IMG/VR virus record: IMGVR_UViG_3300042311_000626 | Location: 1 to 64,000 of that record | Length of the DNA: 64,000 nt | Direction: 5' to 3' (one strand) | Origin: a virus | Lineage: Duplodnaviria > Heunggongvirae > Uroviricota > Caudoviricetes | Shown: positions 2,002 through 19,540 of the stretch, piece by piece | Layout: the number at the start of each line of letters is the position of its first letter | How positions within the stretch are numbered: position 1 is the stretch's first letter | Position numbers and translations under genes: made by a program | The notes under the pieces: model-generated | Told to the model about the DNA's origin: nothing | The model's database searches: none | What the model saw: the letters and a program-made list of their open reading frames with translations, nothing else

Positions 2002-2028
2002 TCATTGTAATTTTACAAAAGATTTAAA
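2002..2028 (+). promoter_or_regulatory. early promoter motif, variant form (..GTAATTTTACAAAAGATTTAAA)
   Basis: Same variant recurs at 2694-2720; 10 nt upstream of ATG 2038. Confidence 0.4.
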
Positions 2029-2037
2029 GCATATAGT

Positions 2038-2130
2038 ATGAAACGAGATTATACAAAAGCAATTGTTTGGATAGGATTAGCTTTAATCACAATTGCTATA
2101 TGGACAACAATTTACAATTTAATATTTTAG
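2038..2130 (+). CDS. small membrane peptide (30 aa)
   Basis: ATG 10 nt downstream of an early-promoter variant; single TM helix; below ORF-track cutoff. Confidence 0.25.
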   Translation: MKRDYTKAIVWIGLALITIAIWTTIYNLIF

Positions 2131-2134
2131 GATT

Positions 2135-2281
2135 ATGTCGAAGGAAAAAACAACTACAAAGAAACAAAGCAAACCATTTTGGGAATTAGGATTAAACCCA
2201 ATCACAATGTGGGAACCAATTAAAGATAATTACCTTGAAATCCAGAAAAAAACTAAAAAATACGTTAAATCAGAAGAATAA
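2135..2281 (+). CDS. small Lys-rich protein (48 aa)
   Basis: ORF filling the gap to the next gene; stop overlaps next ATG (taATG). Confidence 0.25.
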   Translation: MSKEKTTTKKQSKPFWELGLNPITMWEPIKDNYLEIQKKTKKYVKSEE

Positions 2282-2481
2282 TGAATGATACAGTAAAAGA
2301 CTTATTTGATTTAAAAAATAGACAAATAAGTGAGCTTCAAGAAAAATTATCAATAGCTCAAAACAGAATAACACAGTTAGAGACTTATATATTCGAGTTA
2401 TGTGATAAGGATTGTCCTAAAGAATATAAACACGTAGTTAAACAAGAAGTATTTCAACATTTAAAACAATACAATGGATAG
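2281..2481 (+). CDS. hypothetical coiled-coil protein
   Basis: 66-aa ORF. Confidence 0.4.
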   Translation: MNDTVKDLFDLKNRQISELQEKLSIAQNRITQLETYIFELCDKDCPKEYKHVVKQEVFQHLKQYNG

Positions 2482-2686
2482 TATAGTAAGAAGCGTTATT
2501 GATAAATTTATTCAAAGAGCTGAATTTGGAAAACAAAAGTATGGAACTGATTTAGATCGTACTGATTTAGATTTAGAAGATTATTTACAACATGCATTGG
2601 AAGAACATATGGATGCTATCTTGTATTTGACTAAAGCATTAAAATTAGAAAGAGAAAGAAAAGAGCGAGAAAAGCTTGGTGAATAG
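2474..2686 (+). CDS. hypothetical protein
   Basis: 70-aa ORF, 8-nt overlap with previous. Confidence 0.4.
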   Translation: MDSIVRSVIDKFIQRAEFGKQKYGTDLDRTDLDLEDYLQHALEEHMDAILYLTKALKLERERKEREKLGE

Positions 2687-2693
2687 ATTCTCT

Positions 2694-2720
2694 CATCGTA
2701 ATTTTACAAAAGATTTAAAA
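2694..2720 (+). promoter_or_regulatory. early promoter motif, variant form
   Basis: catCGTAATTTTACAAAAGATTTAAAA, 12 nt before ATG 2732. Confidence 0.4.
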
Positions 2721-2731
2721 AAATAAAGGTT

Positions 2732-3523
2732 ATGCCAATTACAAACGAAAGAAACCCGATGACATTAGCGCAGTTAAATGCCGTATGTCCAAGTGCATTT
2801 ACAAGAGTAGCTGCACCTAATGTATCAACTAATTATACTCATATCCCAACATCACAAGTGATTGAGGATATGATTGAATTAGGATGGACACCAGTAAGTG
2901 CTCAAGAAGTAAAATCAAGAAAATTAGTAGGTTTTCAAAAACACATCATCAGATTTCAAAATCAAAACATTACGATTACTGGAACTAATAATGATAATGT
3001 ATTTCCTGAGTTATTATTAACTAATTCACACGATGGTAAAAATGCATTCCATTTAAGAGTTGGATTGTATAGAACTGTATGTTCTAATGGTCTAGTAGTT
3101 GCTGATGCTGAATTTAGCAATGTTTCAATTCGTCATATGGGTTATACATTTGAAGAATTACGTACAAAAGTTGTAAATTTAATTGAAACTTTACCAAATT
3201 TAGTAAATAAAATCAACCAATTCAGAGATATATCATTATCAGATGAACAAATGATTGAATTTGCAACACAAGCAGCAATGGCTAGATGGAACAATTCAGA
3301 TATTACTGTTAATCCAAATGAATTATTAGTAGCAGAACGTAATTTAGATATGGGTAATGATTTATGGGCTGTGTTTAATAGAGTTCAAGAAAAATTAGTA
3401 AATGGTGGGTTCAATTACAATAACGGTAGAAAAACACGTAAGGTAAGAGCATTAAAGAATTTTACAGCTGACATGCAATTTAATGGGAAATTGTGGGAAT
3501 TAGCAGAGAGTTATTTAAACTAG
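2732..3523 (+). CDS. hypothetical protein (263 aa)
   Basis: ORF preceded by early motif variant and aaaggttATG context. Confidence 0.5.
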   Translation: MPITNERNPMTLAQLNAVCPSAFTRVAAPNVSTNYTHIPTSQVIEDMIELGWTPVSAQEVKSRKLVGFQKHIIRFQNQNITITGTNNDNVFPELLLTNSHDGKNAFHLRVGLYRTVCSNGLVVADAEFSNVSIRHMGYTFEELRTKVVNLIETLPNLVNKINQFRDISLSDEQMIEFATQAAMARWNNSDITVNPNELLVAERNLDMGNDLWAVFNRVQEKLVNGGFNYNNGRKTRKVRALKNFTADMQFNGKLWELAESYLN

Positions 3524-3550
3524 TATATTTATTTTAAAAATTTAGCAACT

Positions 3551-3811
3551 ATGAACATTTACGATCAATTAGCAGACATTCATTCACAATTAACACATGA
3601 TGAAATGTGGTTATCAATCATTGAAGAATACTTTGAAGAATTCGAAGTAGAAAACATGGATGAATTAATCGATAAAACATCAACACAAGAAAATGATGGT
3701 GTTGTGTATCGTCTTATTAGAGAAGGAGAAGATTTATTAGAATTAAAAGATGACGTCGATGATTACTTCTCAGATGATGATGACGATGAAGATTACAATT
3801 ACAATTATTAA
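3551..3811 (+). CDS. acidic hypothetical protein
   Basis: 86 aa with poly-Asp tail DDDDDEDYNYNY. Confidence 0.45.
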   Translation: MNIYDQLADIHSQLTHDEMWLSIIEEYFEEFEVENMDELIDKTSTQENDGVVYRLIREGEDLLELKDDVDDYFSDDDDDEDYNYNY

Positions 3812-3826
3812 TTAAAAACAAAGGTT

Positions 3827-4435
3827 ATGAAATTTACAAGAAAAGCTGCATTTAATTATGTACAGTTGAGAGGATTACAAAAGTATGTAAAAGACACTAA
3901 AGGATTTATAGCTGGAGGGTGCTTTAAAGATTTATTTCTAGGTAAGAAACTTCGAGACGTAGATGTATTCTTCCAAAACGAAGACGACTACAACGAAGCA
4001 GTTCAAATCTATAATCATAAATGTAGTCGTAAAGATAGTAAAATAAAGAAAATTTACACTAACGACAATTGTACTGGGTATAGAAATTCTAAAACAGGAC
4101 TTAACATTGAATTAATTAAATCGATATTTGGAACACCTGAAGAAATTATAACACAATTCGACTTTACAATTGTGCAAGCGGTATACTTCAATCCACAAAC
4201 TGAGGAAGAAACACAATTCATATACCACCCAGACTTCTTCGAACACTTAACATTAAGACGATTAGTAGTTAATCCAGATATGCCTAAAGCAGTAGCTACT
4301 TTAAACAGAGCATTCAAATATGCTGGGTATGGATTTGGGTTATGTAGAGAAAGTAAGATAATATTGACACAAGCTGTTATTGAACGTGGTGTAGTTGAAG
4401 ATATTAATGGTGATCTTTATTTCGGATTTGATTAA
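3827..4435 (+). CDS. Pol-beta-superfamily nucleotidyltransferase, divergent CCA/poly(A)-polymerase head-domain paralog
   Basis: IAGGCFKDLFLGKKLRDVDVFF matches GGxVRDxxLG..DxDxxx; QFDFTIVQA is a degenerate RRDFTxNA motif. Confidence 0.5.
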   Translation: MKFTRKAAFNYVQLRGLQKYVKDTKGFIAGGCFKDLFLGKKLRDVDVFFQNEDDYNEAVQIYNHKCSRKDSKIKKIYTNDNCTGYRNSKTGLNIELIKSIFGTPEEIITQFDFTIVQAVYFNPQTEEETQFIYHPDFFEHLTLRRLVVNPDMPKAVATLNRAFKYAGYGFGLCRESKIILTQAVIERGVVEDINGDLYFGFD

Positions 4436-4460
4436 AAATATTTGGAGGGGCAAAAGCCCC

Positions 4461-4487
4461 TTCGTAATTTTATAGCATAATTAAAAA
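4461..4487 (+). promoter_or_regulatory. early promoter motif TTCGTAATTTTATAGCATAATTAAAAA
   Basis: Near-identical copy; preceded by ggggcaaaagcccc hairpin. Confidence 0.5.
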
Positions 4488-4496
4488 TAATAGGTT

Positions 4497-4793
4497 ATGA
4501 AACAGTTAGAAAAATTAGTAACACCATTAGTAATATTGTTTATATATTATTGGGCTTGTGAAGGTATGACTAAATTAATATGGAATAAAAAAGATAGTGA
4601 ACAATTTAAGGGTATGGTTAAATTCTTAGGTTTATCTTTAATTTTAGGTTCTATATTGTACATATTTGGAACGTATGCTATGTTCGGTCCTGCACCTTCA
4701 CATATGAAAATATGGTATCAATTATTCTTAGGATTTCATTTATTCTATTTAGGTTTTGGAAACTTATTAAATGTCATTTTAAAACGTAACTAA
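4497..4793 (+). CDS. small membrane protein
   Basis: 98 aa, 3 hydrophobic helices; early motif upstream. Confidence 0.45.
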   Translation: MKQLEKLVTPLVILFIYYWACEGMTKLIWNKKDSEQFKGMVKFLGLSLILGSILYIFGTYAMFGPAPSHMKIWYQLFLGFHLFYLGFGNLLNVILKRN

Positions 4794-4927
4794 CATATGT
4801 CACAAGATCTAAACAAAGAACAAATCCAAAAAGAAATTTTAGAATTAAAATTAAAAAAACCTCTTACATCTGAGGACAAAAAACGTATTCAAAAATTACA
4901 ACAATTATTAGATAAAAAATAAAAGTT

Positions 4928-5116
4928 ATGGCAGATTCAAAGTCAAGCAGCAGTGGATTAGGATTAGGAACGGTATTGTTTCTAATATTCATGGTATTAA
5001 AATTAACAAACTACATTGACTGGTCATGGTGGTGGATAACTGCTCCATTATGGATTCCAATTATAATTTTAGGAGTTGTAGGGTTAATAGCAATATTTTA
5101 TATAAAAAAGTTTTAA
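4928..5116 (+). CDS. small membrane protein
   Basis: 62 aa, 2 TM helices, Trp-rich. Confidence 0.4.
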   Translation: MADSKSSSSGLGLGTVLFLIFMVLKLTNYIDWSWWWITAPLWIPIIILGVVGLIAIFYIKKF

Positions 5117-5117
5117 A

Positions 5118-5348
5118 ATGAAAACAGTAATTAAAATTTTAGCAGGGTTAATACTAGCATTTGGGTTAATCCAATTAACCGATTTAGGTTTGTATTTAAT
5201 GAATCGACCTGACAGTTACCTATTCAACTTAGGTATCATAGTATTAGCTATAGTGGGTGTTGCGTTTGCATTCTTAGGATTATATATGATGAAAGTATTA
5301 AAACCTGAAGAAGTAAAAGAAGAAATTAAACAAGAAAAAGAAGAATAG
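5118..5348 (+). CDS. small membrane protein
   Basis: 76 aa, 2 TM helices, charged C-terminus. Confidence 0.4.
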   Translation: MKTVIKILAGLILAFGLIQLTDLGLYLMNRPDSYLFNLGIIVLAIVGVAFAFLGLYMMKVLKPEEVKEEIKQEKEE

Positions 5349-5350
5349 TT

Positions 5351-6610: not shown

Positions 6611-6635
6611 AAAATAATAAAAAACATTTGATTAA

Positions 6636-6661
6636 AGGCTTGCTAACGCGAGCCTTTTTTC
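6636..6661 (+). terminator. rho-independent terminator
   Basis: aggcttgctaacgcgagcc hairpin plus T6. Confidence 0.5.
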
Positions 6662-6687
6662 GTATCTTTATAGCATAGTTTAAAAAA
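6659..6687 (+). promoter_or_regulatory. early promoter motif TTCGTATCTTTATAGCATAGTTTAAAAAA
   Basis: Abuts T-run of terminator 6636-6661; 9 nt before ATG 6696. Confidence 0.5.
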
Positions 6688-6695
6688 TAAAGGTT

Positions 6696-7079
6696 ATGGA
6701 TAAACACACATTACTACAGAAGATCAAATCAGGTAATTACAATCAGCAACAGCTACTAAGTTGGGTAGGATGCTTACCAGGGACTTCAGCAAGTAGAAAG
6801 CCTAAGTTTACTAAAGTAGGAGACATTTATATGCATCCTATATTTCAACATCCATATCTTATCTTGGATAAAAGAGATGGATATTACATCTGCGGATTGA
6901 TTACAAGTGAGAGTAGCTGTCCTGAGATATTAGAAGCATGCAGATCCAGGTTCATGGAAGGGTATATTACAAAGACATTATTTACAGCAAGTGAAATCTC
7001 AGGTAGTTTTATAAACAACTACGACAATACAAGACACTTGAAGAAAGTATTAGTTAAATTAAGAGAAACATTAAAATAG
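6696..7079 (+). CDS. MazF/PemK-like (CcdB/MazF-fold) endoribonuclease-toxin-like protein
   Basis: VGDIYMHPIFQHPYLILD...YICGLITSES parallels PemK/MazF GDIWxVxxxP...RPxLVL...xVxPxTS. Confidence 0.4.
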   Translation: MDKHTLLQKIKSGNYNQQQLLSWVGCLPGTSASRKPKFTKVGDIYMHPIFQHPYLILDKRDGYYICGLITSESSCPEILEACRSRFMEGYITKTLFTASEISGSFINNYDNTRHLKKVLVKLRETLK

Positions 7080-7084
7080 AAGTT

Positions 7085-7318
7085 ATGATAGAGAGAATAG
7101 CAACAGCAATTACAGCCATTATTTTTTTAGGATCTTTAGTAGTAGGGCTTATAACAAGTACTATAGATCTAATCTCAGTAGCTCTTACAGGAAATAGTTT
7201 AACAGGAATACCTATAGAGTTCTTTTTACTTTTAATCGTATGTACACCTCCAATAGCATTAATTACAATCTATTCAGGAGTAGTATTAGATAAAATATTT
7301 AACTTAGAAAATAAATAA
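7085..7318 (+). CDS. small membrane protein
   Basis: 77 aa, 2 TM helices; immediately after the MazF-like gene. Confidence 0.4.
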   Translation: MIERIATAITAIIFLGSLVVGLITSTIDLISVALTGNSLTGIPIEFFLLLIVCTPPIALITIYSGVVLDKIFNLENK

Positions 7319-7321
7319 ATT

Positions 7322-8056
7322 ATGCCAAAAATATTTAAAGTAGGAGGATGCGTCAGAGATGGACTCCTAGGAGTAAAAACAAAAGATATCGACTTCACAT
7401 TTGTATTAGATGATCTAAACAAGACAGTTGAAGAAGGATTCAAAGAGATGGAGCAATGGATGATAGATCAAGGATTTACAATCTTCCTATCCGTTCCAGA
7501 GATGTTTACAATCAGAGCTAAATTTCCAAGTGATCATAAATTTGCTAAATTGGATGCAGACTTTGTAATGGCTAGAAAGGAAGTTAGTTATATTGAAGGA
7601 ACAAGACGTCCAATACTAGAATTAGGAACATTGGGAGATGATTTAGTTCGTAGAGACTTTACAGTCAATGCTATGGCTGAAGATGAGGATGGTAATTTAA
7701 TTGATTTGTTTGACGGTATATGGGCTTTAGAAAGTAAGATGCTTCTCACACCTCTTGAACCAACACAAACGTTTCTAGATGATCCTTTAAGAATGATAAG
7801 AGCACTTAGATTTTCAATCACTAAAGGATTTACAATAGCACCTAAGGTTTGGGCAGCGATGTTTATTCCGACTCTAATTGATAAACTACAACAAGTAGTA
7901 AGTGGTGAGAGAATAAGAGAAGAAATTATAAAGATGATGAAAGTAGATACTGTAGCAACTCTACGATTATTAGCTGAAATTGATAAAATAGAACCTAAAT
8001 TCCTAGAAGCTGTATTTAGTGACGGAATGTGGTTAAAACCAACATTTGAACAATAA
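7322..8056 (+). CDS. CCA tRNA nucleotidyltransferase / poly(A) polymerase family protein (head domain, 244 aa)
   Basis: VGGCVRDGLLGVKTKDIDFTF (GGxVRD...DxD) and RRDFTVNAMA signature motifs. Confidence 0.75.
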   Translation: MPKIFKVGGCVRDGLLGVKTKDIDFTFVLDDLNKTVEEGFKEMEQWMIDQGFTIFLSVPEMFTIRAKFPSDHKFAKLDADFVMARKEVSYIEGTRRPILELGTLGDDLVRRDFTVNAMAEDEDGNLIDLFDGIWALESKMLLTPLEPTQTFLDDPLRMIRALRFSITKGFTIAPKVWAAMFIPTLIDKLQQVVSGERIREEIIKMMKVDTVATLRLLAEIDKIEPKFLEAVFSDGMWLKPTFEQ

Positions 8057-8663
8057 AGTTATGATAAATAATATAGAATTGATTAAGCCATTGCTTAATT
8101 TTGAAAATGAAGGTGACTTTTACATGTTATACGTTTTAAAACGTAAAAAAGATCAACCTGAAGGTGAAAGAGATAATCATCAATCAGTAAGAACACTTCG
8201 TTCATATTGTATCAATTCAATTGAACAATTAGAAAAGAAGTATGACGAGATACAATTGTTATGTGAGACATTTAAAGCAAGAGCTTATATTCACGTTCAA
8301 AAACAAAACCATAAAGATGTTTCTCTAAATATGATGGTTGCTTTAGCACAACGTATACAAGACGGAAACCACCAACAACAATCATTATTTGATTCAGTTG
8401 TAGGTCAATTAAAGACTTATGAAAAGAGATGGATTGTTGATATTGATACTCAAGATGTTGAAGAATTAGTTGAGGTTGCTGAATTTATCTATAATCTTAG
8501 ACCAATTGGACATAAAGTTATAACTACAATTCCAACCAAAAACGGGTTTCATCTGATAACCGAACGATTTGATGTTTTATCTTTTAAAAATAGATATTCA
8601 GATATTGACATTCAAAAGAAAAATCCAACACTACTTTATTTACCAAATAGTTTGGATGATTAA
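8046..8663 (+). CDS. hypothetical protein (205 aa)
   Basis: ORF between nucleotidyltransferase and ligase. Confidence 0.45.
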   Translation: MNNKVMINNIELIKPLLNFENEGDFYMLYVLKRKKDQPEGERDNHQSVRTLRSYCINSIEQLEKKYDEIQLLCETFKARAYIHVQKQNHKDVSLNMMVALAQRIQDGNHQQQSLFDSVVGQLKTYEKRWIVDIDTQDVEELVEVAEFIYNLRPIGHKVITTIPTKNGFHLITERFDVLSFKNRYSDIDIQKKNPTLLYLPNSLDD

Positions 8664-8709: not shown

Positions 8710-9819
8710 ATGACATTACCAATTTTGTACAAACGTTCAAACAGTAAAGAACACATCAATCAATGGCAAATTGAGGTTGAAGGAAACAAATTCAGAACAA
8801 CTACAGGATTTGTAAATATGAAAATGTTTACAGGTGATTGGACCGAATGTACTCCTAAAAATGTAGGTAAAAAGAACGCTACAACAGCGGAAGAACAAGC
8901 ATTGTTCGAAGCACAAGCACTATGGCAAAAACGTAAAGATTTAGGTTATTGGGAAGACATAAATGATTGTGATAAGAAAGTATTCTTTCAACCTATGTTA
9001 GCTCAAGACTATGACAAACGTAAGGATAAAGTACAGTTCCCAATTTTATCACAACCAAAACTAGACGGAGTAAGATGTATAGTTAAATCAGATGGTATGT
9101 GGACACGAACAGGAAAGGAAATTATATCTGCTCCTCACATATTTGAAGGACTAAAACACGTATTTGAAACACAACCTGATTTAGTATTGGATGGTGAATT
9201 ATATACTTCAAATACAGAAGTAGATTTCAACACAATCATATCATGTGTTAGAAAAACAAAACCAACACAAGCCGATTTAGATTTATCTACTCGATATATT
9301 GAGTATTGGATGTATGACATGTATGAAGGTGAAGATTTAATATATGCTTCAAGACGAGGTAAATTGTTAAGTTTATTTCTTACATATGATATATCAATTC
9401 TTTATTATAAAATTGTTGAAACAACTAATGTAATTTCATTTGAACAGATTAATCTAAAATTACAAGAATATATTGAACAAGGTTTTGAAGGTCAAATGTT
9501 AAGAGATCCAAACACACCTTATGAAAATAAACGTTCAAATGGTTTATTAAAACATAAAACATTCTTTGATGAAGAGTTTACAATAATAGATTATTCCGAA
9601 GGTATAGGTAAATTTAGTGGTAAAGTAGCAACATTAAAAGTAAATGTTAGTGGTGTAGAAGTGGATTGTACCATAAATGGAACGATGGAGTATTTAGAAG
9701 AATTATTTCAAATCAAAGACACATTAATTGGTAAACAAGCAACAGTTAAGTATTTTGAAAAAACGGTAGATGGTTCATTAAGATTTCCAAAAGTAATAGC
9801 GATACGAGATTATGAATAA
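8710..9819 (+). CDS. ATP-dependent DNA ligase with ~100-aa N-terminal extension
   Basis: Motif I KLDGVR, motif III LDGELY, motif IV EGQMLR, motif V LLKHK. Confidence 0.8.
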   Translation: MTLPILYKRSNSKEHINQWQIEVEGNKFRTTTGFVNMKMFTGDWTECTPKNVGKKNATTAEEQALFEAQALWQKRKDLGYWEDINDCDKKVFFQPMLAQDYDKRKDKVQFPILSQPKLDGVRCIVKSDGMWTRTGKEIISAPHIFEGLKHVFETQPDLVLDGELYTSNTEVDFNTIISCVRKTKPTQADLDLSTRYIEYWMYDMYEGEDLIYASRRGKLLSLFLTYDISILYYKIVETTNVISFEQINLKLQEYIEQGFEGQMLRDPNTPYENKRSNGLLKHKTFFDEEFTIIDYSEGIGKFSGKVATLKVNVSGVEVDCTINGTMEYLEELFQIKDTLIGKQATVKYFEKTVDGSLRFPKVIAIRDYE

Positions 9820-10301: not shown

Positions 10302-10321
10302 GTTGGCTTATAGGAATTGTA

Positions 10322-10348
10322 TTCGTAATTTTATAGCATAATTTAAAA
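10322..10348 (+). promoter_or_regulatory. early promoter motif (consensus copy)
   Basis: Identical 27-mer to 8671-8697. Confidence 0.5.
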
Positions 10349-11606: not shown

Positions 11607-11894
11607 ATGAAACAGACAGCAGTAGAATGGTTAGCGAATGAGCTATATGAAAAATTTGAAATGAAAGGTGATGGTGCTTTGTTTAATGACTTGTTAAATC
11701 AAGCCAATAAAATGTTTGAGCAACAGATTATTGATGCCTTTGATAATGGTGTAGAAGATGATGGAATTATTGATAATGCAGAACAATACTATAATGAAAC
11801 ATTTGGTAAATCAACTCCGTGGTATGATGAAGATAAGACAACAGAAAGAATGAATATAATAGGACAAAATGGAAATAATGGTGAACACTATTAA
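11607..11894 (+). CDS. hypothetical acidic protein
   Basis: ORF in track from a TTG at 11583; first ATG at 11607 (MKQTAVEW...). Confidence 0.35.
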   Translation: MKQTAVEWLANELYEKFEMKGDGALFNDLLNQANKMFEQQIIDAFDNGVEDDGIIDNAEQYYNETFGKSTPWYDEDKTTERMNIIGQNGNNGEHY

Positions 11895-11928
11895 ATCCAA
11901 AGCACCAAATACATAATCCAGCTAAAAT

Positions 11929-11986
11929 AAAACGTACGACGGAAGAAACGAAACGTACGACGGAATAGAATAATAACGTACGGGCG
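11929..11986 (+). repeat. direct repeats AAACGTACGACGG (x2) plus AACGTACGGGCG
   Basis: Exact 13-mer at 11929 and 11951; related copy 11975; further copies at 12732 (direct) and 13243 (inverted). Confidence 0.7.
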
Positions 11987-12347
11987 AAAGGGCGATTACT
12001 AAATAATAGGAGCTGGGTGCTTCGGGTATGAAATATCGCATTTAAACGCATTGTTTTTTTACCACGGCATTATGTGATTATGGGGAGGTAATGCAAAATT
12101 ACGCGTTTTTTTGCGCAAATAATCGCGATTTTTTTGTTGCTTAAAGGAATAGGTGAGGATGGAAAACAAGGGTTAAGGGTGGAAAACATTACAATATTTT
12201 TTTTGTTGCTTAAAGTTTTTGTACTTAACATGTGGAACGAATGGAGATAATGTGTGATGGAGTTTTGTGACAAGGGAAAAGGTCCCGCCATGCCACGCCC
12301 CGTTTCTCCACTTTCGAAACGTATATACAAAACATAACATAACTACT

Positions 12348-12545
12348 ATGCTATATTACATAAACATTTACGTATTCATTGGCGCCATTGTGTCCGTATT
12401 GGCCATATTAATGAATAATTATTTTGTTAAGTACGACGACGGGACTCCTTTAACCAATAAAGACGTCGTTATAATAATTTTTTTCTGGCCAATATTTCTT
12501 TTGTTCTTGTTTTATTACTTTTTTGTTAAAGATTGGGATAACTAA
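12348..12545 (+). CDS. small membrane protein (65 aa)
   Basis: ATG inside track ORF 12267..12545 where AT-rich codon usage resumes; 2 TM helices. Confidence 0.3.
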   Translation: MLYYINIYVFIGAIVSVLAILMNNYFVKYDDGTPLTNKDVVIIIFFWPIFLLFLFYYFFVKDWDN

Positions 12546-12586
12546 GAATTTTTTTGTACATTCATATAAATAAAAAATTTAAAATT

Positions 12587-12733
12587 ATGATTGTACCTTT
12601 TTGGATTCAAGGCTTAGCATTTGGTGTTTATTATGTTCCGGACGACGACGGAGTAGATTACGACGACGAGACACATATGGTCCAATTGGCGTTAGGTTTT
12701 TTTGGTATATCGTTTATGTGGTGGAACGACTAA
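12587..12733 (+). CDS. small membrane protein (48 aa) with acidic loop
   Basis: MIVPFWIQGLAFGVYYVPDDDGVDYDDE...FFGISFMWW; below track cutoff. Confidence 0.25.
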   Translation: MIVPFWIQGLAFGVYYVPDDDGVDYDDETHMVQLALGFFGISFMWWND

Positions 12734-12852
12734 AACGTACGACGACGAAAGTTTTTTGTCTTTTTTTGCGATAATATTTGGTTGCGTGGTTTTTTGTTAT
12801 TAATTTTATGCCAGAGTTAAAAACATAAACATTAACATTAAAAATCAAGGTT

Positions 12853-13185
12853 ATGACGCGTACAGAAGTATTAGCAAAAGTAAAAGAGTTAGGTATCAAA
12901 ACAGAAAGACCAGCTCATCAGATGAAAACAGAAGCATTAGTTGCTTTAATTCACAAAACAGTTGTGATTGAAGATCACAAAGCACGTGGACGTAAAATCA
13001 ATCCAACGAGCGCTAGACAACAAAGATTAGCTACCCGAGCTATGTTGTTAGAAAATGGTCCAATTCAAAAAGGACGTAAACCGAACTTAACCAGTGCCAG
13101 ACAACAAAGATTGGCTGCATGGGAAGCTAGAAAGGCTGCCGGTGAGGTAATAAAACGAGGCCGTCCAGCAATGGTGGTTGCGTAA
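12853..13185 (+). CDS. HeH/Rho-N (SAP-like) domain DNA-binding protein with tandem basic repeats
   Basis: N-terminal LAKVKELGIKT...MKTEALVALI fits the Rho-N/HeH signature; two GRKxNxTSARQQRLA repeats; strong terminator follows. Confidence 0.5.
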   Translation: MTRTEVLAKVKELGIKTERPAHQMKTEALVALIHKTVVIEDHKARGRKINPTSARQQRLATRAMLLENGPIQKGRKPNLTSARQQRLAAWEARKAAGEVIKRGRPAMVVA

Positions 13186-13207
13186 TTTAATTGTTAAACT
13201 AGGAACT

Positions 13208-13237
13208 GACCCGACAGAAATGTCGGGTCTTTTTTTT
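13208..13237 (+). terminator. rho-independent terminator
   Basis: gacccgaca-gaaa-tgtcgggtc 9-bp stem plus T8. Confidence 0.75.
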
Positions 13238-13428
13238 CCTCCGTCGTACGTTTTATTATTTGGGGACAACTATTTCTAATATCCAAGTTGGTTGTTAATT
13301 TTTTTATTCGTACCTTTATGGGGGGGTCCGTTTTTTTTTTATAAAAACGTTACAACATTTTTTGTTTATCATTTGGATATTGGTTTTTTTGTTTGTATAT
13401 TTACGACGTTAATTAAAACAATAGAGTT

Positions 13429-13680
13429 ATGAGAGTACAAATTAAATCCATCTTCGAGCAAATTGCAGAGCAAGTATTTAAAATGACTGATGCAACTAAA
13501 GCTAAAACGTTCATTACTGAATTCGTTAATGAAAAGAATATTAACGACGACGACAAAAGAACGATCCTAAACAACATAGAGAACCTTAAATCGATTGCCC
13601 AGATCCAGAAATACATCTGTAACTCACTTCTTCAGTATGAGGGGCTAGGTGTTGGTGCTAGAAAGGATCCAAATGAGTGA
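13429..13680 (+). CDS. hypothetical protein; 3' end runs into a GC-rich segment
   Basis: 83-aa ORF; last ~15 codons lie in the GC-rich island 13635-13765. Confidence 0.35.
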   Translation: MRVQIKSIFEQIAEQVFKMTDATKAKTFITEFVNEKNINDDDKRTILNNIENLKSIAQIQKYICNSLLQYEGLGVGARKDPNE

Positions 13681-13948
13681 GCTGGATCATCTGGCCCAGT
13701 GGGAGCAGTTCCTCTGGCTTCAGGGGCTCGATCCGGGGCCTGAAATTGGGAACACCATTTCGTTAGTATGTATGTCGGAAGACATTAAACATTATAATTA
13801 TGAAGACTATCCAAGTAACACTTCAAGAGCGATGGGCTGCTTCTAGGCACCAGATCCACAAGACAAAGAAAACATATACCCGTAAGGATAAACACAAAAA
13901 CAAGAGTCGTAAAGACTCTTCATTTGTCTTTGGTTACCAGAATTATGT

Positions 13949-13975
13949 GTCGTAATTTTATAGCATAGTTAAAAA
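13949..13975 (+). promoter_or_regulatory. early promoter motif
   Basis: gtCGTAATTTTATAGCATAGTTAAAAA upstream of ATG 13993. Confidence 0.45.
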
Positions 13976-13992
13976 CATTAAAAATAAAAGTT

Positions 13993-14238
13993 ATGGCTTA
14001 TAGAGAAACATTTAGAATGAATCAAAGAGATTTTGATGAAGAAAATGAAGAAACAATTAATGACATTAGAAGTTATTTAGTTTACAATTACAATCATGTA
14101 AGTTCAGACCAACTATCAGATGGTTTTATTCTGGAGTTTATGTCCAGAGATTACTTAGTAAGGTTGCCGTTTGAGAGAAAGATGGATTGCCTTTATGATC
14201 ACATTTTGGCTCAAGGTTTATGTGATGTAGAAGAATAG
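13993..14238 (+). CDS. hypothetical protein
   Basis: 81-aa ORF between early motif and terminator. Confidence 0.4.
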   Translation: MAYRETFRMNQRDFDEENEETINDIRSYLVYNYNHVSSDQLSDGFILEFMSRDYLVRLPFERKMDCLYDHILAQGLCDVEE

Positions 14239-14241: not shown

Positions 14242-14262
14242 AAGCGCTTAGGCGCTTTTTTT
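14242..14262 (+). terminator. rho-independent terminator
   Basis: aagcgc-ttag-gcgctt plus T7. Confidence 0.5.
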
Positions 14263-14290
14263 GTCTTTCACTAGGATACCTAAAAAATTT

Positions 14291-14318
14291 TTCGTACCTT
14301 TATACCAAATTTAAATTA
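14291..14318 (+). promoter_or_regulatory. early promoter motif, degenerate
   Basis: TTCGTACCTTTATACCAAATTTAAATTA upstream of the GC-rich ORF. Confidence 0.4.
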
Positions 14319-14887: not shown

Positions 14888-14908
14888 ATTTGGTTGCCTA
14901 AAATATTA

Positions 14909-14937
14909 TTCGTACTTTTATATCAAAGTTTAACAAT
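14909..14937 (+). promoter_or_regulatory. early promoter motif, degenerate
   Basis: TTCGTACTTTTATATCAAAGTTTAACAA. Confidence 0.4.
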
Positions 14938-15545: not shown

Positions 15546-15571
15546 ATAATACTTGGTTATACGGTTTATAG

Positions 15572-15598
15572 TTTGTAATTTTATAGCATAATTTAAAA
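15572..15598 (+). promoter_or_regulatory. early promoter motif
   Basis: TTTGTAATTTTATAGCATAATTTAAAA, 11 nt before ATG 15610. Confidence 0.5.
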
Positions 15599-15777: not shown

Positions 15778-15778
15778 G

Positions 15779-15964: not shown

Positions 15965-15991
15965 AAGTAGACGTGTATACGCTACTTACCG

Positions 15992-16018
15992 TTCGTAATT
16001 TTATAGCATAGTTTAACA
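15992..16018 (+). promoter_or_regulatory. early promoter motif
   Basis: TTCGTAATTTTATAGCATAGTTTAACA. Confidence 0.5.
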
Positions 16019-16034
16019 ATTAAAAACATATAAA

Positions 16035-16220
16035 ATGAAAACATTAGACATCTTAATTAAAGTATTATTAGTTACCTTAATGTTATTAAGTGTAATACGA
16101 ATGTTCTTCTACCCTAGTACATTAGAACATTTTGCAATGTGTTGGTTCTTGCTTATGGCATCTGGTGTTGGTGCATTAGCTTACTACAAACAAAGCACCA
16201 AATGGAACCTAAACAAATAA
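16035..16220 (+). CDS. small membrane protein
   Basis: 61 aa, 2 TM helices. Confidence 0.35.
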   Translation: MKTLDILIKVLLVTLMLLSVIRMFFYPSTLEHFAMCWFLLMASGVGALAYYKQSTKWNLNK

Positions 16221-16363
16221 AAGCAATGAATACGATAACACAGACGATAGAGCAAGATGGATTCAGCTGGTTCGAATATAATACAGGATCGATCACATTA
16301 ATCGAATTTTCATTGAGTGAGCTAGTAAAGCGTATAGTAGCCATTAACCCGACGCTAAATTAA
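16202..16363 (+). CDS. hypothetical protein (53 aa)
   Basis: First ATG of the hydrophilic part of track ORF 16139..16363; 19-nt overlap in a different frame. Confidence 0.3.
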   Translation: MEPKQIKAMNTITQTIEQDGFSWFEYNTGSITLIEFSLSELVKRIVAINPTLN

Positions 16364-16439
16364 GCATGTACGGTAGATACTAAACAAACAACAACAACTA
16401 ACATGAGGCGGCCAAAAGGTCGCCTTCCTTAATCTAAAT

Positions 16440-16690
16440 GCATGTGTGCGCGCGCGTGACAAAAAAAGCGGGCAGGGCTCTGGCTTCAGGCGGGTCTGGC
16501 GTGTGTGACAAAAAAGAACACTCTCCTTCAATCTATCGATCCGCTAGCGCTGCGCGCGCGGAGCGACAGCGAAGTGGGCCCACGGTAATTGCGGTCCATC
16601 GACGATGCGACAAAAACGCGCCCGAAGGCCCCGGCTTTACAACAAGACAACAAAATTCACCCCGCGCCCCCCGTATATACAAATATATTG
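16440..16690 (+). other. GC-rich non-coding island (~60% GC in a ~31% GC genome)
   Basis: GTGACAAAAAA / GCGACAAAAAC repeats, (CG)n runs, ends in CGTATATACAA; track ORFs here look spurious. Confidence 0.6.
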
Positions 16691-16835
16691 CAAAATCCAT
16701 TATAACCCATTCGATATAAAATCCAAGACCCCGAAATCTCTCTCTTTAACGATCTTTTTCCCACTTCAAAGCGTATATACGAGAGGTTGGAAACAAGAAA
16801 AAACATTCGTATATTTAGACTTAAATTAAAAAGTT

Positions 16836-16979
16836 ATGATAATATACATGGATAAAACCATTGAGTTATTAGGTAAACTAGACCCCAAGGGAACCCAGGC
16901 CTTAATCGACTCAGGTGAAGTTAAATACTTAGAAGAAAAAACTGCTTATTTAGTAATTAAAGATAAAGAAGATGAGTAA
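16836..16979 (+). CDS. hypothetical protein (47 aa)
   Basis: aaaagttATG context; stop overlaps next start. Confidence 0.25.
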   Translation: MIIYMDKTIELLGKLDPKGTQALIDSGEVKYLEEKTAYLVIKDKEDE

Positions 16980-17976
16980 AATTGAAGAATTAAAACAGCA
17001 CAATCCTTATTACGGAAAATCAGCCATCGATATAATGCATTGGCTTTTTGATAAACCCAAATACGTCGAGCTAGCCGTTTCATTGTTTAAAAACGCAGAA
17101 AACGCGCGTACTTACCATAATGATGTTATTGAGATATTAGCAGATTGGGAAATACCTCAGGAAAAAATAGATGCTCTATCTATCTACGAATTACACTTTA
17201 TATACGTTTTCTTAGATTCAGTAGGTAGAGAAAATATTACTAATCTACTTAAATTTGCCGAATATAACGAGCGAAAATTAATTGTTCGAAATGATATTTC
17301 CACGTATAAGAATTTTGATGAATTGGAGAATCAAATAAATCTAGCAGAGATAAAAATAATGGGTAAAGAATTACAATCCCAAACCCAAATCCTACATGAT
17401 ACGGATGAATGGTTGGTTTTAAAACCATTATCATTCGAAGCATCTTTAAAATATGGTGCCTCTACTAAGTGGTGTACCGCCATGAAGAATGACCCCGAGT
17501 ATTTTATTCGTTATTCTAAACGTGGAATTGTGATTTATTGTATAAATCGCTCCACGGGTGAAAAAATAGCCGCATTTAAGAATCTTAATACTGATTATGA
17601 GTATGAAACATCATTCTGGGATGCTAAAGATATTCGTGTAGATTCTATGGATACTAATCTTCCTGAACGTATTTTAATTCTTATACGTAGTGAGTTTACT
17701 AATACTAAATTAACTAATTGGGAATTATTTTCAGATGAATATAAAGCTCAGTATCTTTCAAATACAACTATGACAACAAATACATGGCATGATGAACCAA
17801 ACGTAGCACCAAATCAGGGTGGTTTAGGATTAGCCATTCGTAACGCTATTACGTATGATGAAGACATTAATGTTGAAGAATTAGTAGAAAGGCAAATGGA
17901 AGAACGAGTAGTAGCTTGTAATACTGCTCCACCCCCATTTATGGGTGACATGGTTGAACAAGCTTGGAGAGACTAA
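16972..17976 (+). CDS. hypothetical protein (334 aa)
   Basis: Long ORF first after the GC-rich island; no recognisable motif. Confidence 0.5.
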   Translation: MSKIEELKQHNPYYGKSAIDIMHWLFDKPKYVELAVSLFKNAENARTYHNDVIEILADWEIPQEKIDALSIYELHFIYVFLDSVGRENITNLLKFAEYNERKLIVRNDISTYKNFDELENQINLAEIKIMGKELQSQTQILHDTDEWLVLKPLSFEASLKYGASTKWCTAMKNDPEYFIRYSKRGIVIYCINRSTGEKIAAFKNLNTDYEYETSFWDAKDIRVDSMDTNLPERILILIRSEFTNTKLTNWELFSDEYKAQYLSNTTMTTNTWHDEPNVAPNQGGLGLAIRNAITYDEDINVEELVERQMEERVVACNTAPPPFMGDMVEQAWRD

Positions 17977-17980
17977 TAGT

Positions 17981-18454
17981 ATGGGAGAATTTAAACACAT
18001 AACATTAGACGAAGCTAAATCGGATTATTATCCTAAACCCGAAGGAGTAAATTGTTTTTACTCTGATGCTTATACTTTAACACCTGATCCTAATGATCCA
18101 ACTAATGATTATGTACATTATTGGGTAAAGAATAATAAATTTAATGCTTCCTTATCATTTAACGAAGGATACATTTATATTTTGGAGAATAAAGGTCAAC
18201 CTGGTGTGTTGAAAATTGGATATACGGATAGGACGCCACAGGAGAGAGTCCGAGAGATTAACGGGGCAACAGGTGTTATAACACCTTGGTACATAGTTAA
18301 CGCATTCGCATGTAGAGCGCCTTTACAAATTGAATCTTTGATACATAAGAAACTTAAACCATTTCATGTTAATAAAGAAGGATTTGCTGTAACTATACCC
18401 TATGCTGAGGAAACAATTGCTGGTGTTATTTCCGATAATAATGCAAGTATTTAG
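17981..18454 (+). CDS. T5orf172/MUG113-type GIY-YIG-superfamily domain protein
   Basis: GYIYILENKGQPGVLKIGYTDRTPQERVREIN matches the T5orf172 core (YxYxL...KIGxT...R); ATG at 17981 preferred over track start 17945. Confidence 0.5.
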   Translation: MGEFKHITLDEAKSDYYPKPEGVNCFYSDAYTLTPDPNDPTNDYVHYWVKNNKFNASLSFNEGYIYILENKGQPGVLKIGYTDRTPQERVREINGATGVITPWYIVNAFACRAPLQIESLIHKKLKPFHVNKEGFAVTIPYAEETIAGVISDNNASI

Positions 18455-18494
18455 TAATACTAATATATTTATACCTAAATTAATACAACCACAC

Positions 18495-18758
18495 ATGGCT
18501 GAATATTTATTACAAGACAAAGACAAAGCAGCATTTATTAATAAAATGAATAAAGTATTATCTCAATTACAACCAGGATTGGGTGTGGATAATACTAGTT
18601 TTGTTGATGTACCTGAAAATAAAGATGATGATAAATGCATTTTTGTAACAGGTGATCCTGTAGAGGAGAAAGTGTTAGATCAACTTATTGATCAAAAGAC
18701 TTTTAATTTTAGAGTTAAGAAAATTAGTTTAAAAGAAATATTACAATCAATAAAATAA
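18495..18758 (+). CDS. hypothetical protein
   Basis: MAEYLLQDKDK...; in-frame internal ATG of track ORF 18402..18758. Confidence 0.35.
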   Translation: MAEYLLQDKDKAAFINKMNKVLSQLQPGLGVDNTSFVDVPENKDDDKCIFVTGDPVEEKVLDQLIDQKTFNFRVKKISLKEILQSIK

Positions 18759-18764
18759 ATAACA

Positions 18765-19361
18765 ATGAAAAAACAATTTATTACAGAGGCAGCTCGCCTT
18801 CAAAAACTAGCAGGTATTATCAATGAATCTCAATATAGAGAATTGAGTGAAAACCCCGATTTAAAGAAATATGATGGGCCAACTAAAATTTTTAATGGTA
18901 TACCTCATACATGGTTAGGTAATGGATATTTCCCCTCAGACCAAGGAGGTATAGATGCATTAAAAGCTTCATTTGTACAAAGTGAAAAGGATAAAGTTGA
19001 TAAAATACTTAAACAACAATTAGCAGGTAAAAGAGGAATTAAAGATAACAGTAAAGTAAAATATTTTATAGCTAATCCTAATTATGATCCTGCTCAGGAT
19101 GATTATGATACTGATAATGATGACCATAAATATGAGATTAACATACAAGGTATAGTAGATGCTATAAAAAAATATGCTGCTCAAAACAATTTAAAAATTA
19201 ATCCTGAGAGTTTAGCATATTATATAGAGGGTCTTGAAGGTTTTGGTTATGATTATGGTTCTGGGGATTTTGGAGACTTTGAAAGAATGGGAGGGTATAA
19301 TAGAGAATTAACTCCTATGGAATTATATAGCGAATTTTTGTCTATTACTTATGATCTTTAA
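18765..19361 (+). CDS. hypothetical protein (198 aa)
   Basis: ORF followed by strong terminator. Confidence 0.45.
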   Translation: MKKQFITEAARLQKLAGIINESQYRELSENPDLKKYDGPTKIFNGIPHTWLGNGYFPSDQGGIDALKASFVQSEKDKVDKILKQQLAGKRGIKDNSKVKYFIANPNYDPAQDDYDTDNDDHKYEINIQGIVDAIKKYAAQNNLKINPESLAYYIEGLEGFGYDYGSGDFGDFERMGGYNRELTPMELYSEFLSITYDL

Positions 19362-19393
19362 TCTTAAAAATTAATTAAATCTTAAAAATATGA

Positions 19394-19420
19394 CCCGCCC
19401 CTAAAAAGGCGGGTTTTTTT
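19394..19420 (+). terminator. rho-independent terminator
   Basis: cccgcc-cctaaaaa-ggcggg plus T7. Confidence 0.7.
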
Positions 19421-19507
19421 GTCCTTCACCATCTTATATATATGTATCTATTGATAGCGGTATGAAATGCATTACTTTTAAAGAAAACTTGGCTACCGCC
19501 TTCCCCA

Positions 19508-19540
19508 TTCGTATAATACATTATAACTATAAAATTTAAA
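19508..19540 (+). promoter_or_regulatory. early promoter motif, degenerate
   Basis: TTCGTATAATACATTATAACTATAAAATTTAAA before ATG 19545. Confidence 0.35.

Follow-up and report, generated by a model that had tools for sequence, protein, structure and literature searches.

A 27-base element occurs 18 times in the window (the whole 64-kb stretch of phage DNA analysed here), and each copy is probably the core of an early promoter for the host housekeeping holoenzyme (Bacteroidota sigma-A/sigma-ABfr) that doubles as a crossover point for gene cassettes, as judged from sequence comparison. The label 'early' is drawn from gene content and from analogy. The stretch most likely belongs to an uncultured Flavobacterium-type phage.

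Copies of the element and their surroundings

At least 12 copies plus a degenerate one at 50997 had been claimed in an earlier note on this DNA. The motif is present at all 13 positions listed there, and the motif search proposed in that note, run across the 64-kb window, added five more, every copy lying on the + strand. The best in-register alignment of the copies listed at 2002 and 2694 begins at 2004 and 2695 respectively. A weight-matrix scan, with matches confined to the + strand, yielded the new copies 12797, 13392 and 16806, and a generic pattern scan those at 13307 and 49416; the generic pattern TTG-N19-21-TAhhTTT[AG] was found 22 times on the + strand vs 8 times on the − strand. Seven copies differ from the 27-mer by at most three mismatches, against 0.00 expected from 100 dinucleotide-preserving shuffles. 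All 18 are on the coding strand shortly 5' of an open reading frame (ORF), and in 16 of them 3–29 nt separate the 27-mer from the ATG, which bears out the claimed placement just 5' of start codons. The downstream ORFs are mostly without a Pfam or PHROG match (ORFans). Sixteen of the 18 copies fall within 2–19.5 kb, and the copy at 50997 is degenerate in its downstream part. The copies and the features around them are as follows.

1984..2030, +, putative E-class promoter copy, sub-variant C (GTTG ... ATTG TAATTTTA caaa A); a 30-codon ORF follows at 2038
2675..2721, +, E-class copy, sub-variant C (CTTG ... ATCG TAATTTTA); ORF 2732-3523 follows
4441..4487, +, E-class copy; the -33/-7 spacer contains hairpin GGAGGGGCAAAAGCCCCTTC (4444-4463); ORF 4497 follows
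6634..6685, +, E-class copy (6659); terminator AAAGGCTTGCTAACGCGAGCCTTT (6634-6657) includes the -33 TTG, its T-run ending TTCG; left repeat of a 2-kb block absent in the relative L131
8651..8697, +, E-class copy matching the 27-mer perfectly; the DNA ligase gene (8710-9819) follows; right-hand repeat of the 2-kb block
10302..10348, +, E-class copy, perfect 27-mer; ORF 10352/10358 follows
12777..12823, +, E-class copy, newly added, sub-variant D (TTAT TAATTTTA tgcc AGAGTTAAAAACA); ORF 12853 follows
13287..13333, +, E-class-like copy, newly added (GTTG ... TTCG TACCTTTA); G7 and T11 runs follow
13372..13418, +, weaker E-class copy, newly added (TTTG ... TTTG TATATTTA); ORF 13429 follows
13902..13975, +, terminator hairpin (13902-13920), then E-class copy (13929-13975); ORF 13993 follows
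14242..14317, +, terminator hairpin (14242-14257) and T-run, then E-class copy (14271-14317), sub-variant B, -33 box CTAG; ORF 14327 follows
14889..14935, +, E-class copy, sub-variant B; ORF 14953 follows; in L131 a 210-nt insertion lies between duplicated copies
15552..15598, +, E-class copy, single in the window; L131 has two copies around an extra 1.8 kb
15972..16018, +, E-class copy, -33 box CGTG; ORF 16035 follows
16786..16832, +, weaker E-class copy, newly added; ORF 16836 follows
19488..19534, +, deviant copy (CTTGG ... TTCG TATAATAC) in front of the operon whose last gene is the sigma-like one; deviant form kept in relatives L005 and L002
19997..20752, +, phage gene for a divergent sigma-70-family protein, located where the early region gives way to the structural genes
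20768..20776, +, first intergenic copy of the second motif class ATATTTATA, directly 3' of the sigma-like gene
49396..49442, +, generic copy, newly added (TTTGG, hairpin 49399-49415, TTTT TACATTTA); the DNA polymerase exonuclease-subunit gene follows at 49451
50963..51023, +, terminator hairpin (50963-50991) with a T7 run and the degenerate copy (TTCG TATATTTA); an oxidoreductase-like gene follows at 51029
18465, 26267, 32668, 40424, 43265, 48307, 50231, 53318, 54513, 56128 and 58010 (starts), +, other copies of ATATTTATA

The distinct sub-variant said to be common to the first two copies proved real: TTTTACAAAAGATTTAAA occurs at 2004 and 2695, and contig L006, which is 99.8% identical, has a third copy about 5.9 kb 5' of the window. 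Sub-variants are kept at orthologous positions among relatives.

Anatomy of the element

A TTTG(G) box is found 20 nt 5' of a TAhhTTTA box (motif positions 5–12), the layout of the -33 TTTG and -7 TAnnTTTG boxes in promoters of the Bacteroidota housekeeping sigma factor, sigma-ABfr (Bayley 2000; Vingadassalom 2005; PMC6847099; PMC9723704; Ryan 2020, PMC7366714). The revised -7 consensus of F. johnsoniae is TAHHTTTG at -12 to -5, with 4–5 nt between the box and the start site and a nearly invariant G at -5 (PMC6847099), and the -33 box of its promoters is barely detectable (Baez 2019, PMC6847099); in F. psychrophilum the -7 box also lies at -12 to -5 and the median leader is 24 nt (Guerin 2021, PMC9723704). 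Given the two-box layout and the published box-to-start distance, the predicted start is motif position 17, so that the last 11 nt of the 27-mer would be leader. The predicted +1 is an A in 11 of the 15 copies at 1–17 kb (12 of 18 overall), and the predicted leaders are 14–40 nt long (median about 21).

The main reading of the earlier note, an early-type promoter of Bacteroidota and not sigma-70 character, is favoured by every computational line of evidence. That note had taken the 27-mer as the promoter element. It does appear to hold the promoter core, but the -33 box falls 16–20 nt 5' of it, outside the 27-mer. Similarly, the likeness of its TAnnTTT segments to Bacteroidota -7 elements holds for the first segment (positions 5–12) and not for the second. 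Presence of the element in mRNA leaders had been named as grounds for rejecting a promoter; the last 11 nt are indeed predicted to be transcribed, which does not overturn the promoter reading.

Across the 15 copies at 1–17 kb, information content peaks at -35 to -32, -16 to -13, -12/-11 and -8 to -5, and is low at -10/-9 and through the spacer. TA and TTT of the -7 box (T-12, A-11, T-8, T-7, T-6) are present in 17 of the 18 copies, the exception being the 19508 copy (TATAATAC), which retains TTCG and TTGG despite the loss of TTT. The -10/-9 dinucleotides are AT, TA, CC, TC, CT and CA, with G in none of the 18. TTG sits exactly at -35 to -33 in 14 copies, giving TTTG-N20-TA, inside the scan window TTG-N19-21-TA. 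The element thus resembles sigma-ABfr promoters in box positions (-36 to -33 and -12 to -5), in TTTG-N20-TA spacing, in fixed TA and TTT around variable, non-G -10/-9 positions, and in short leaders. It differs from them in the base at -5, which is A in 17 copies and C in the 19508 copy in place of the host-type G; in the F. johnsoniae promoter table TATATTTG is listed 69 times vs 0 for TATATTTA, and TAATTTTG 42 times vs 0 for TAATTTTA (PMC6847099). The -33 box is also far better conserved in the phage than in the host, and the phage element adds a conserved TTCG (-16 to -13) and a -4 to +11 segment. The form with G, TTG-N19-21-TAhhTTTG, occurs at only two sites in the window, each inside a gene. 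Matches to sigma-70-type promoters are not enriched in the window (100 vs 104 expected), in agreement with the claim that the motif is unlike sigma-70 -35/-10 elements.

Terminator hairpins and cassette layout

Terminator hairpins lie beside or within six of the 18 window copies (4461, 6659, 13949, 14291, 49416 and 50997), and terminator-like sites are enriched at 1–20 kb (19 vs 6.8 expected). Across the phage family the hairpin falls within the -33/-7 spacer at 26 of 129 sites, about a fifth. The sequence of putative promoter, leader and ATG is present in all window copies. The terminator-promoter-gene arrangement described earlier therefore holds as an arrangement, but several hairpins are nested in the spacer and do not precede the promoter. 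Where a terminator stands directly 5' of the element or nested in it, a new transcription start is needed at that point.

Relatives and recombination at the copies

The closest cultured relative is Flavobacterium phage immuto (terminase identity 58%), which has a polymerase of family A and, as helicase, DnaB. With the terminases of T4-like cyanophages the identity is only about 30%. The Bacteroidota host proposed earlier is upheld by this relationship, by Shine-Dalgarno cores in only one of 96 genes and by the lack of sigma-70-type enrichment. The same architecture, with lineage-specific flanks, was found in 10 related loci including immuto, which has about 27 element copies in 16 kb. An A at -5 is also present in about 38 immuto sites, and TTG-N19-21-TAhhTTTG was not found on the + strand in 100 kb of its genome. 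Lineage L155 carries the canonical TAhhTTTG, that is with G at -5, in the same kind of repeat.

Nine of the 12 synteny breaks between the window and L131 touch a copy, five of them with both edges inside copies or within about 40 nt of them; by our own rough estimate about five would be expected from gene junctions alone, a modest excess. In one junction alignment (A1) the single L131 copy consists of the upstream half of copy 6659 and the downstream half of copy 8671, between which the window holds four genes, and a second (A2) gives the reciprocal case at copy 15572. These two alignments indicate that crossover within element copies has added or removed blocks of genes; being long co-oriented direct repeats, the copies would also be crossover points for cassette gain, loss and exchange.

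A sigma-like gene and a second motif class

The protein encoded at 19997-20752 (251 amino acids; Pfam Sigma70_r2, E=1.7e-5) is modelled as helical throughout, and a fold search aligned it over nearly its full length with multi-domain sigma factors, whole sigma factors being matched weakly. The gene has >7,900 metagenomic homologues, and it lies directly 5' of the first late unit in both the window and immuto. The second motif, ATATTTATA, occurs 12 times, always on the + strand and never before 18.4 kb, mostly 4–26 nt 5' of the ATGs of structural and replication genes; the 9-mer is also present in relatives and immuto and is probably a late promoter. The T4-type late motif TATAAATA shows no coding-strand enrichment (3 on + vs 15 on −).

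Proposed organisation

The anatomy of the element, its conservation and placement and the recombinant junctions are observed; the sigma factor that reads it, the start site, the early timing and the cascade are inferred. The full element is a cassette of about 50–70 nt whose 27-mer spans -16 to +11. TTTG(G), the -33 box, occupies -36 to -32. After it comes a variable spacer of 16 nt, which in about a fifth of copies contains the terminator hairpin of the preceding unit. TTCG at -16 to -13 follows, roughly at the place of the extended -10 in sigma-70 promoters, and then TAhhTTTA as the -7 box (-12 to -5). Transcription is predicted to start at the A of motif position 17, giving a conserved, A/U-rich leader without a Shine-Dalgarno sequence, often ending AAARGTTATG. 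The copies would drive short units, mostly of ORFan and nucleotide-metabolism genes. The copy at 19508 probably drives the operon of the phage sigma-like factor, which may then shift transcription to ATATTTATA before the structural genes, and crossover between copies would gain, lose and exchange gene cassettes in a PeSL-like manner.

Alternative readings

Two features count against reading by the host holoenzyme: no copy has the G at -5, and TTCG and the -4 to +11 segment are outside the described host consensus. A phage sigma-like protein could, in principle, read such a two-box promoter. It is nevertheless rather unlikely that the phage factor, or a phage-modified host polymerase, reads the element as a middle-class promoter while the unmodified holoenzyme does not, or that the strong TTGG box, together with TTCG and the A at -5, is in that sense a private recognition code. 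This reading would account for the encoded sigma-70-family protein, for the departure of all copies from the host G, for the survival of TTCG and TTGG in the 19508 copy, and for the G-containing form being absent from the + strand of immuto and only intragenic in the window. However, the sigma gene itself lies behind an element of the same class, so a host-readable promoter would be needed first, and no such promoter of another type was found. ATATTTATA, identical across lineages and beginning right after the sigma gene, is the more natural sigma target; moreover, the geometry and the variable positions fit the host rule exactly, and lineage L155 has the canonical box in a like repeat. On a further and more novel reading, which is on balance improbable, the A at -5, TTCG, the strong TTGG and the conserved but lineage-specific -4 to +11 segment would not be products of drift and would form a private code by which a phage factor distinguishes phage early promoters or transcripts from those of the host. 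Candidates are the sigma-like protein, a DksA/TraR-like protein (one is annotated in the early region of immuto), or a repressor or RNA-binding protein; the timing of early expression, or its shut-off, could be the role of such a factor.

We consider it quite improbable that the conservation mainly reflects a signal in the RNA, such as a translational operator or 5' leader common to early messages, with transcription starting further 5'. The 3' 11 nt of the 27-mer do resemble the A/U-rich aTT(T)AAAAnAATAAARGTTATG found before internal, promoter-less early genes, GTT occupies -3 to -1 relative to the start codon in 17 of 51 early vs 3 of 45 late genes, and the block resembles the T4 and RB69 RegA SELEX targets aaAAUUGUUAUGUAA and AAUAAUAAUAAnA (PMC3014915). 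The best-conserved parts (TTGG, TTCG, TA and TTTA), however, are spaced fixedly relative to each other and not to the ATG; over leaders of 14–40 nt, the long ones carry the A/U block twice, near the box and near the ATG. The terminators directly 5' of or inside the element likewise demand a new start, and a RegA homologue was not found in the window. Least credible of all is that the repeat serves as promoter for a single-subunit or virion RNA polymerase of the phage, or that it has no part in transcription and is a recombination site, an iteron or a mobile miniature element. The long, near-identical 27-mer is superficially T7-promoter-like and crossovers inside it do occur, yet no RNA polymerase domain was detected in the ORFs scanned, including the large 44232-47297 and 27803-32650, and whereas promoters of phage polymerases form a single block, the element has two parts and a variable spacer between them. 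As for a repeat, the copies are dispersed, co-oriented with genes and just 5' of start codons, unlike iterons or transposable repeats, and the 19-mer core has four single matches in bacterial genomes, none repeated, about the chance level by a rough estimate assuming uniform base composition.

Comparison with known systems and significance

The element is a Bacteroidota variant of an already known kind. Among its closest counterparts are the PeSL (promoter-early stem-loop) cassettes that T4-like myoviruses carry (Arbiol et al. 2010, PMC2839356; Comeau et al. 2014, PMC4122927), for which excision of mini-circles by recombination between tandem copies is a further trait. Each combines a stem-loop with an early promoter of host type, a region for translation start and an ATG. 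Copies of either kind are numerous, co-oriented and clustered among small ORFan genes with lineage-specific consensus flavours, and in both the indel or replacement junctions between close relatives fall in or beside the element. The phage element differs in using the Bacteroidota -33/-7 code instead of sigma-70 -35/-10 boxes and in lacking a Shine-Dalgarno sequence. Its geometry is also different, because the stem-loop, which in PeSL lies 5' of the -35 box, here usually sits inside the promoter spacer, its 5' arm containing or adjoining the -33 TTG. The hairpin is present in only about 20% of the phage-family copies, and the carrier, by its terminase and the replication genes of immuto, is not a true T4-like phage. 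T4 and PST early promoters keep the host frame with an extended consensus of their own, TTTACW-N17-TAYWAT (PMC2839356; PMC4122927). The early promoters proposed here do the same.

The late system of T4 pairs the gp55 sigma factor with a single short A/T-rich motif, TATAAATA. The sigma-like gene and short A/T-rich putative late motif of the window mirror this logic, with the difference that the 9-mer is ATATTTATA. gp55 is shorter than the 251-residue protein and essentially a region-2 protein, whereas the model of the latter aligns almost in full with multi-domain sigma factors. Long conserved intergenic repeats of halovirus HF2 are reported to be promoters (PMC8707807), and to that extent are comparable to the repeats reported here; HF2 is an archaeal virus with other transcription machinery, and homology is not implied.

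Promoters of Bacteroidota-infecting phages are almost undescribed, and a full-text literature search for TAnnTTTG with 'phage' brought up no phage promoter family evident from titles among the matches listed. In the copies, nature offers a small series of variants of what is probably a strong Flavobacteriia promoter, already joined to terminator and leader; this would be useful for genetic engineering in Bacteroidota, in which E. coli parts fail. They suggest that cassette shuffling at promoter-terminator repeats, known from T4-like phages, also takes place in an unrelated and abundant aquatic phage lineage. Together, the element, the sigma-like gene and ATATTTATA make up a testable two-stage transcription programme, for which immuto and its host Flavobacterium sp. 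LMO8 are a suitable cultured system. If the private code exists, no regulated promoter class would have been defined before it for Bacteroidota phages.

Copies of the early element

The 27-mer TTCGTAATTTTATAGCATAATTTAAAA occurs in seven copies at ≤ 3 mismatches, against none in 100 dinucleotide-preserving shuffles, and a recognisable copy of the motif was found at all 13 positions (13/13) at which an earlier note, made by reading the sequence, had placed it; the best register for two of these, 2002 and 2694, is 2004 and 2695 respectively. A weight-matrix scan of both strands returned matches on the + strand only and added new copies at 12797, 13392 and 16806, while a generic pattern scan added those at 13307 and 49416. 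This early promoter-like element (E-class; copies are named by the start of the 27-mer) is thus present 18 times; 16 copies lie within 2–19.5 kb, and the other two, at 49.4 and 51.0 kb, are weaker. Directly 3′ of copy 13307, a run of seven Gs is followed by a run of eleven Ts (13323–13355; TGGGGGGGTCCGTTTTTTTTTTTATAAAAACG), the next promoter copy being 80 nt further along; this stretch may be a remnant, or may act as an attenuator or give rise to a tiny transcript.

A degenerate scan of IMG/VR with TTGG-N17-CGTAnnTTTATA hit at least 120 loci, mostly as single matches judged compatible with chance, and was set aside. An origin of the motif as a copy of a host repeat found no support: the exact 19-mer gave four single matches in 185,579 bacterial genomes, approximately the chance level by our own rough estimate, and these shared no common context.

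Predicted promoter architecture

Alignment of the flanks of the copies revealed a box outside the 27-mer, TTTG(G), at a fixed distance of 20 nt upstream of TAATTTTA (motif positions 5–12). Across the 15 copies at 1–17 kb, information content peaks at TTGG, at the TTCG immediately before the TAATTTTA box and at the TA and TTTA of this box, and falls at its two middle positions, where G is absent in 18/18 copies, and over the spacer. The housekeeping promoters of Bacteroidota carry TTTG at −33 and TAHHTTTG over −12 to −5, with the start site 4–5 nt further on (PMC6847099; PMC9723704; PMC7366714) and, judged by sequence, the E-class architecture is that of this published rule. In the Bacteroidota register the predicted start falls on motif position 17 (A in 11/15 copies at 1–17 kb), so that the 27-mer spans −16 to +11. 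The predicted leaders are 14–40 nt long (median near 21), compared with a median of 24 in F. psychrophilum (PMC9723704).

The earlier view that the element is unlike sigma-70 promoters stands; sigma-70-type matches in the window are at chance level. The likeness to Bacteroidota −7 elements, proposed for the TAnnTTT segments in general, holds for the first segment (positions 5–12) but not for the second (TAATTTAA, positions 18–25), the TA of which varies among sub-variants of the element and which lacks a TTG at the appropriate upstream distance. An ECF-sigma promoter with a CGT box was rejected given that the −13 G is variable in the Flavobacterium phage immuto, that there is no conserved AAC-type −35 and that the copies checked by eye have the wrong spacing. 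Likewise, a sigma-54 reading of TTGGC was abandoned, no TGC being found at the −12 distance in the copies inspected from a related locus, L151.

Predicted terminators and leaders

The 1–20 kb region contains 19 terminator-like hairpins compared with 6.8 expected. The terminator–promoter cassette described previously is found in that form at 13949 and 14291, where a hairpin lies just upstream, whereas at 4461, 6659, 49416 and 50997 the hairpin sits between the −33 and −7 boxes. In copy 6659 (AAAGGCTTGCTAACGCGAGCCTTTTTTCG), for example, the 5′ arm of the hairpin includes TTG, and TTCG forms the end of the T-run. Such nested hairpins were found at 26/129 sites family-wide.

An A/U-rich block, aTT(T)AAAAnAATAAARGTTATG, takes in the 3′ end of the 27-mer and recurs before early genes that lack a promoter copy, its terminal part forming an early-gene start context:

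2732, 3827, 4497, 6696, 8710, 10573 and 13993, examples from 20 genes in the window: AAARGTTATG start context

GTT occupies −3 to −1 in 17/51 early genes vs 3/45 late genes; in F. johnsoniae, G at −3 lowered expression of the single reporter tested (PMC6847099). The block resembles SELEX targets of the RegA translational repressors of T4 and RB69 (PMC3014915), with AAARGTTATG itself being similar to the T4 RegA target aaAAUUGUUAUGUAA; a scan of ~70 window ORFs revealed no RegA homologue. Long leaders contain the block twice, once at a fixed position from the promoter and once from the ATG, and the promoter-proximal block thus seems to be under a constraint of its own; it might serve in promoter escape, as an operator or as a 5′ RNA tag.

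The phage and its probable host

Metagenomes are so far the sole source of this phage, and two segments of the window gave no megablast match to INPHARED phages. The window has a G+C content of 31% and carries nearly all genes on the + strand, with thymidylate synthase, nucleotidyltransferases and DNA ligase encoded in the first 10 kb, numerous ORFans up to ~19 kb, a replication block at 38–53 kb, terminase and portal genes at 54–58 kb, and genes for baseplate and other structural proteins. Among cultured phages, vB_FspM_immuto, a Flavobacterium myovirus of 160 kb, is the closest (terminase identity 58%), and a 105.8-kb IMG/VR contig is 99.8% identical to the first 2.65 kb of the window. Shine-Dalgarno cores are absent (1/96 genes) and positions −13 and −12 ahead of the start codons are A-rich, both of which fit a Bacteroidota host (PMC6847099).

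Other features of the window are:

298–1350: thymidylate synthase gene, missing from the syntenic place in L131, the closest distinct relative (1,043 nt vs 7 nt); neither edge of the difference carries a promoter copy
11895–12850: ~0.95 kb with only two short ATG-initiated ORFs of at least 35 codons and a higher G+C (~0.36), within a stretch (11874–14010) that aligns to L131 at 88% identity
17981–18454: HNH or homing-like ORF
38178–38609, + strand: SegE-type GIY-YIG homing endonuclease (Pfam E=5e-29), adjoining the primase gene

The region at 11895–12850 may contain a non-coding RNA, or genes that start with GTG or TTG; searches for tRNAs and Rfam families were without match both there and in the window as a whole.

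Versions in related phages

A few IMG/VR contigs contain the exact core of the motif, each locus with several copies, and the window-type motif was detected in 4 of 31 related loci anchored on the ligase gene, with ligase identities of 46–95%. Other relatives have their own versions:

L136: TTTGG-N-TTCG-TATATTTA-AGTATAATTTAAAA
L151: TTTGGCTACCC...TATATTTA-GGTGTAATTAAAAA
immuto: AGTTGC-N-TTCn-TATATTTA-GGTATCAATAATTAAAACA, ~27 copies among small ORFs over 16 kb
L155 lineage: canonical TAhhTTTG, without TTCG

Because these are versions of one architecture, both boxes, with their spacing, are shared by the whole family; within a genome the −4 to +11 segment is conserved, but it differs from lineage to lineage. 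In the more distant L155 (IMGVR_UViG_3300042451_000939), repeated promoters lie at 5013, 8276, 11502 and 20578, and in two of these four (8276 and 11502) the ATG comes just 4–5 nt after the box, so that the early messages are predicted to be leaderless.

A predicted sigma factor and a second motif class

A sigma-like gene and a second repeated motif were found further downstream:

19997–20752, + strand: ORF of 251 aa, sigma-like
18465, 20768, 26267, 32668, 40424, 43265, 48307, 50231, 53318, 54513, 56128 and 58010, + strand: ATATTTATA

The ORF product matched Pfam Sigma70_r2 above the cut-off (E=1.7e-5) and NCBIfam sigma-factor families weakly, and the best structural matches of its AlphaFold model (mean pLDDT 71) were almost all sigma factors, albeit with weak E-values (0.02–1). 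It is predicted to be a divergent sigma-70-family protein. More than 7,900 metagenomic homologues were found, and immuto encodes one at the equivalent position (L162 28151–28852; 42% identical), annotated as hypothetical.

All 12 copies of ATATTTATA are on the + strand and none lies before 18.4 kb, the first intergenic one directly following the sigma-like gene. Ten of the 12 lie ahead of structural or replication genes, ending 4–26 nt before the ATG, and the identical 9-mer is present in the related loci L005 and L002 and in immuto. ATATTTATA is probably a late promoter class, and hardly overlaps with the E-class along the genome. The T4 late motif TATAAATA was discarded as a candidate, with no coding-strand enrichment (3 on + vs 15 on −).

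The promoter of the sigma operon (19440–19545) is a conserved deviant E-class copy, TTGG-N-TTCG-TATAATAC, represented in relatives by TATAATAT and TATATATC (L005, about 7600–7450; L002, about 5900–5740) and preceded by a conserved block, TATATATATGTATCTATTGATA. This promoter also gives the region's best match of sigma-70 type (TTGGCT-N17-TATAAT). As the simplest scheme, we infer that host polymerase would read the E-class copies, including the one at the head of the sigma operon, and that the phage sigma, once made, would read ATATTTATA.

Which polymerase reads the element

Position −5, a nearly invariant G in the host consensus, is A in every copy apart from the deviant 19508, which has C. 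The described host rule also includes neither TTCG nor the −4 to +11 segment. Over 100 kb of the immuto coding strand there are no TTG-N19-21-TAhhTTTG sites but 38 with A at −5, implying that either A is tolerated by the host enzyme at this position or the true immediate-early promoters of the family lie elsewhere. The sigma-like protein might itself read two-box promoters, but we consider a phage-dependent reading rather unlikely. Reading of the E-class promoters by host sigma-A is the explanation we favour with reasonable confidence.

DpdA and a preQ0/queuosine pathway are annotated in immuto (NC_055915.1), suggesting that its DNA contains 7-deazaguanine, and its early region includes a DksA/TraR-like zinc-finger protein, for which no homologue was found in the window. 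Either might conceivably bear on the avoidance of G at −5 in the promoters.

Apparent recombination at copies of the element

Nine of the 12 synteny breaks between the window and L131 (95% ligase identity) touch a copy of the element, an excess that is modest (~9 vs ~5 expected from gene junctions alone, by our own estimate), and five have both edges in or within ~40 nt of copies. Junction alignment showed that the single pre-ligase copy of L131 comprises the upstream half of copy 6659 and the downstream half of copy 8671, between which the window contains four genes (6696–8663). Reciprocally, the single window copy 15572 has the left flank of one L131 copy and the right flank of another, the two lying 1.8 kb apart in L131. 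This pattern is like that of the junctions described at promoter-early stem-loop (PeSL) cassettes of T4-like phages (PMC4122927).

Significance

The E-class motif is a genuine regulatory element found throughout the family. Its best description is an early promoter of the Bacteroidota type to which a terminator and a leader are fused, and which doubles as a recombination point. PeSL cassettes and phage early promoters of the host type are already known, and the element is a variant of these kinds, not a new category. The system is little studied, it deviates from the host consensus in a systematic way that can be tested, and a cultured relative is at hand for experiments.
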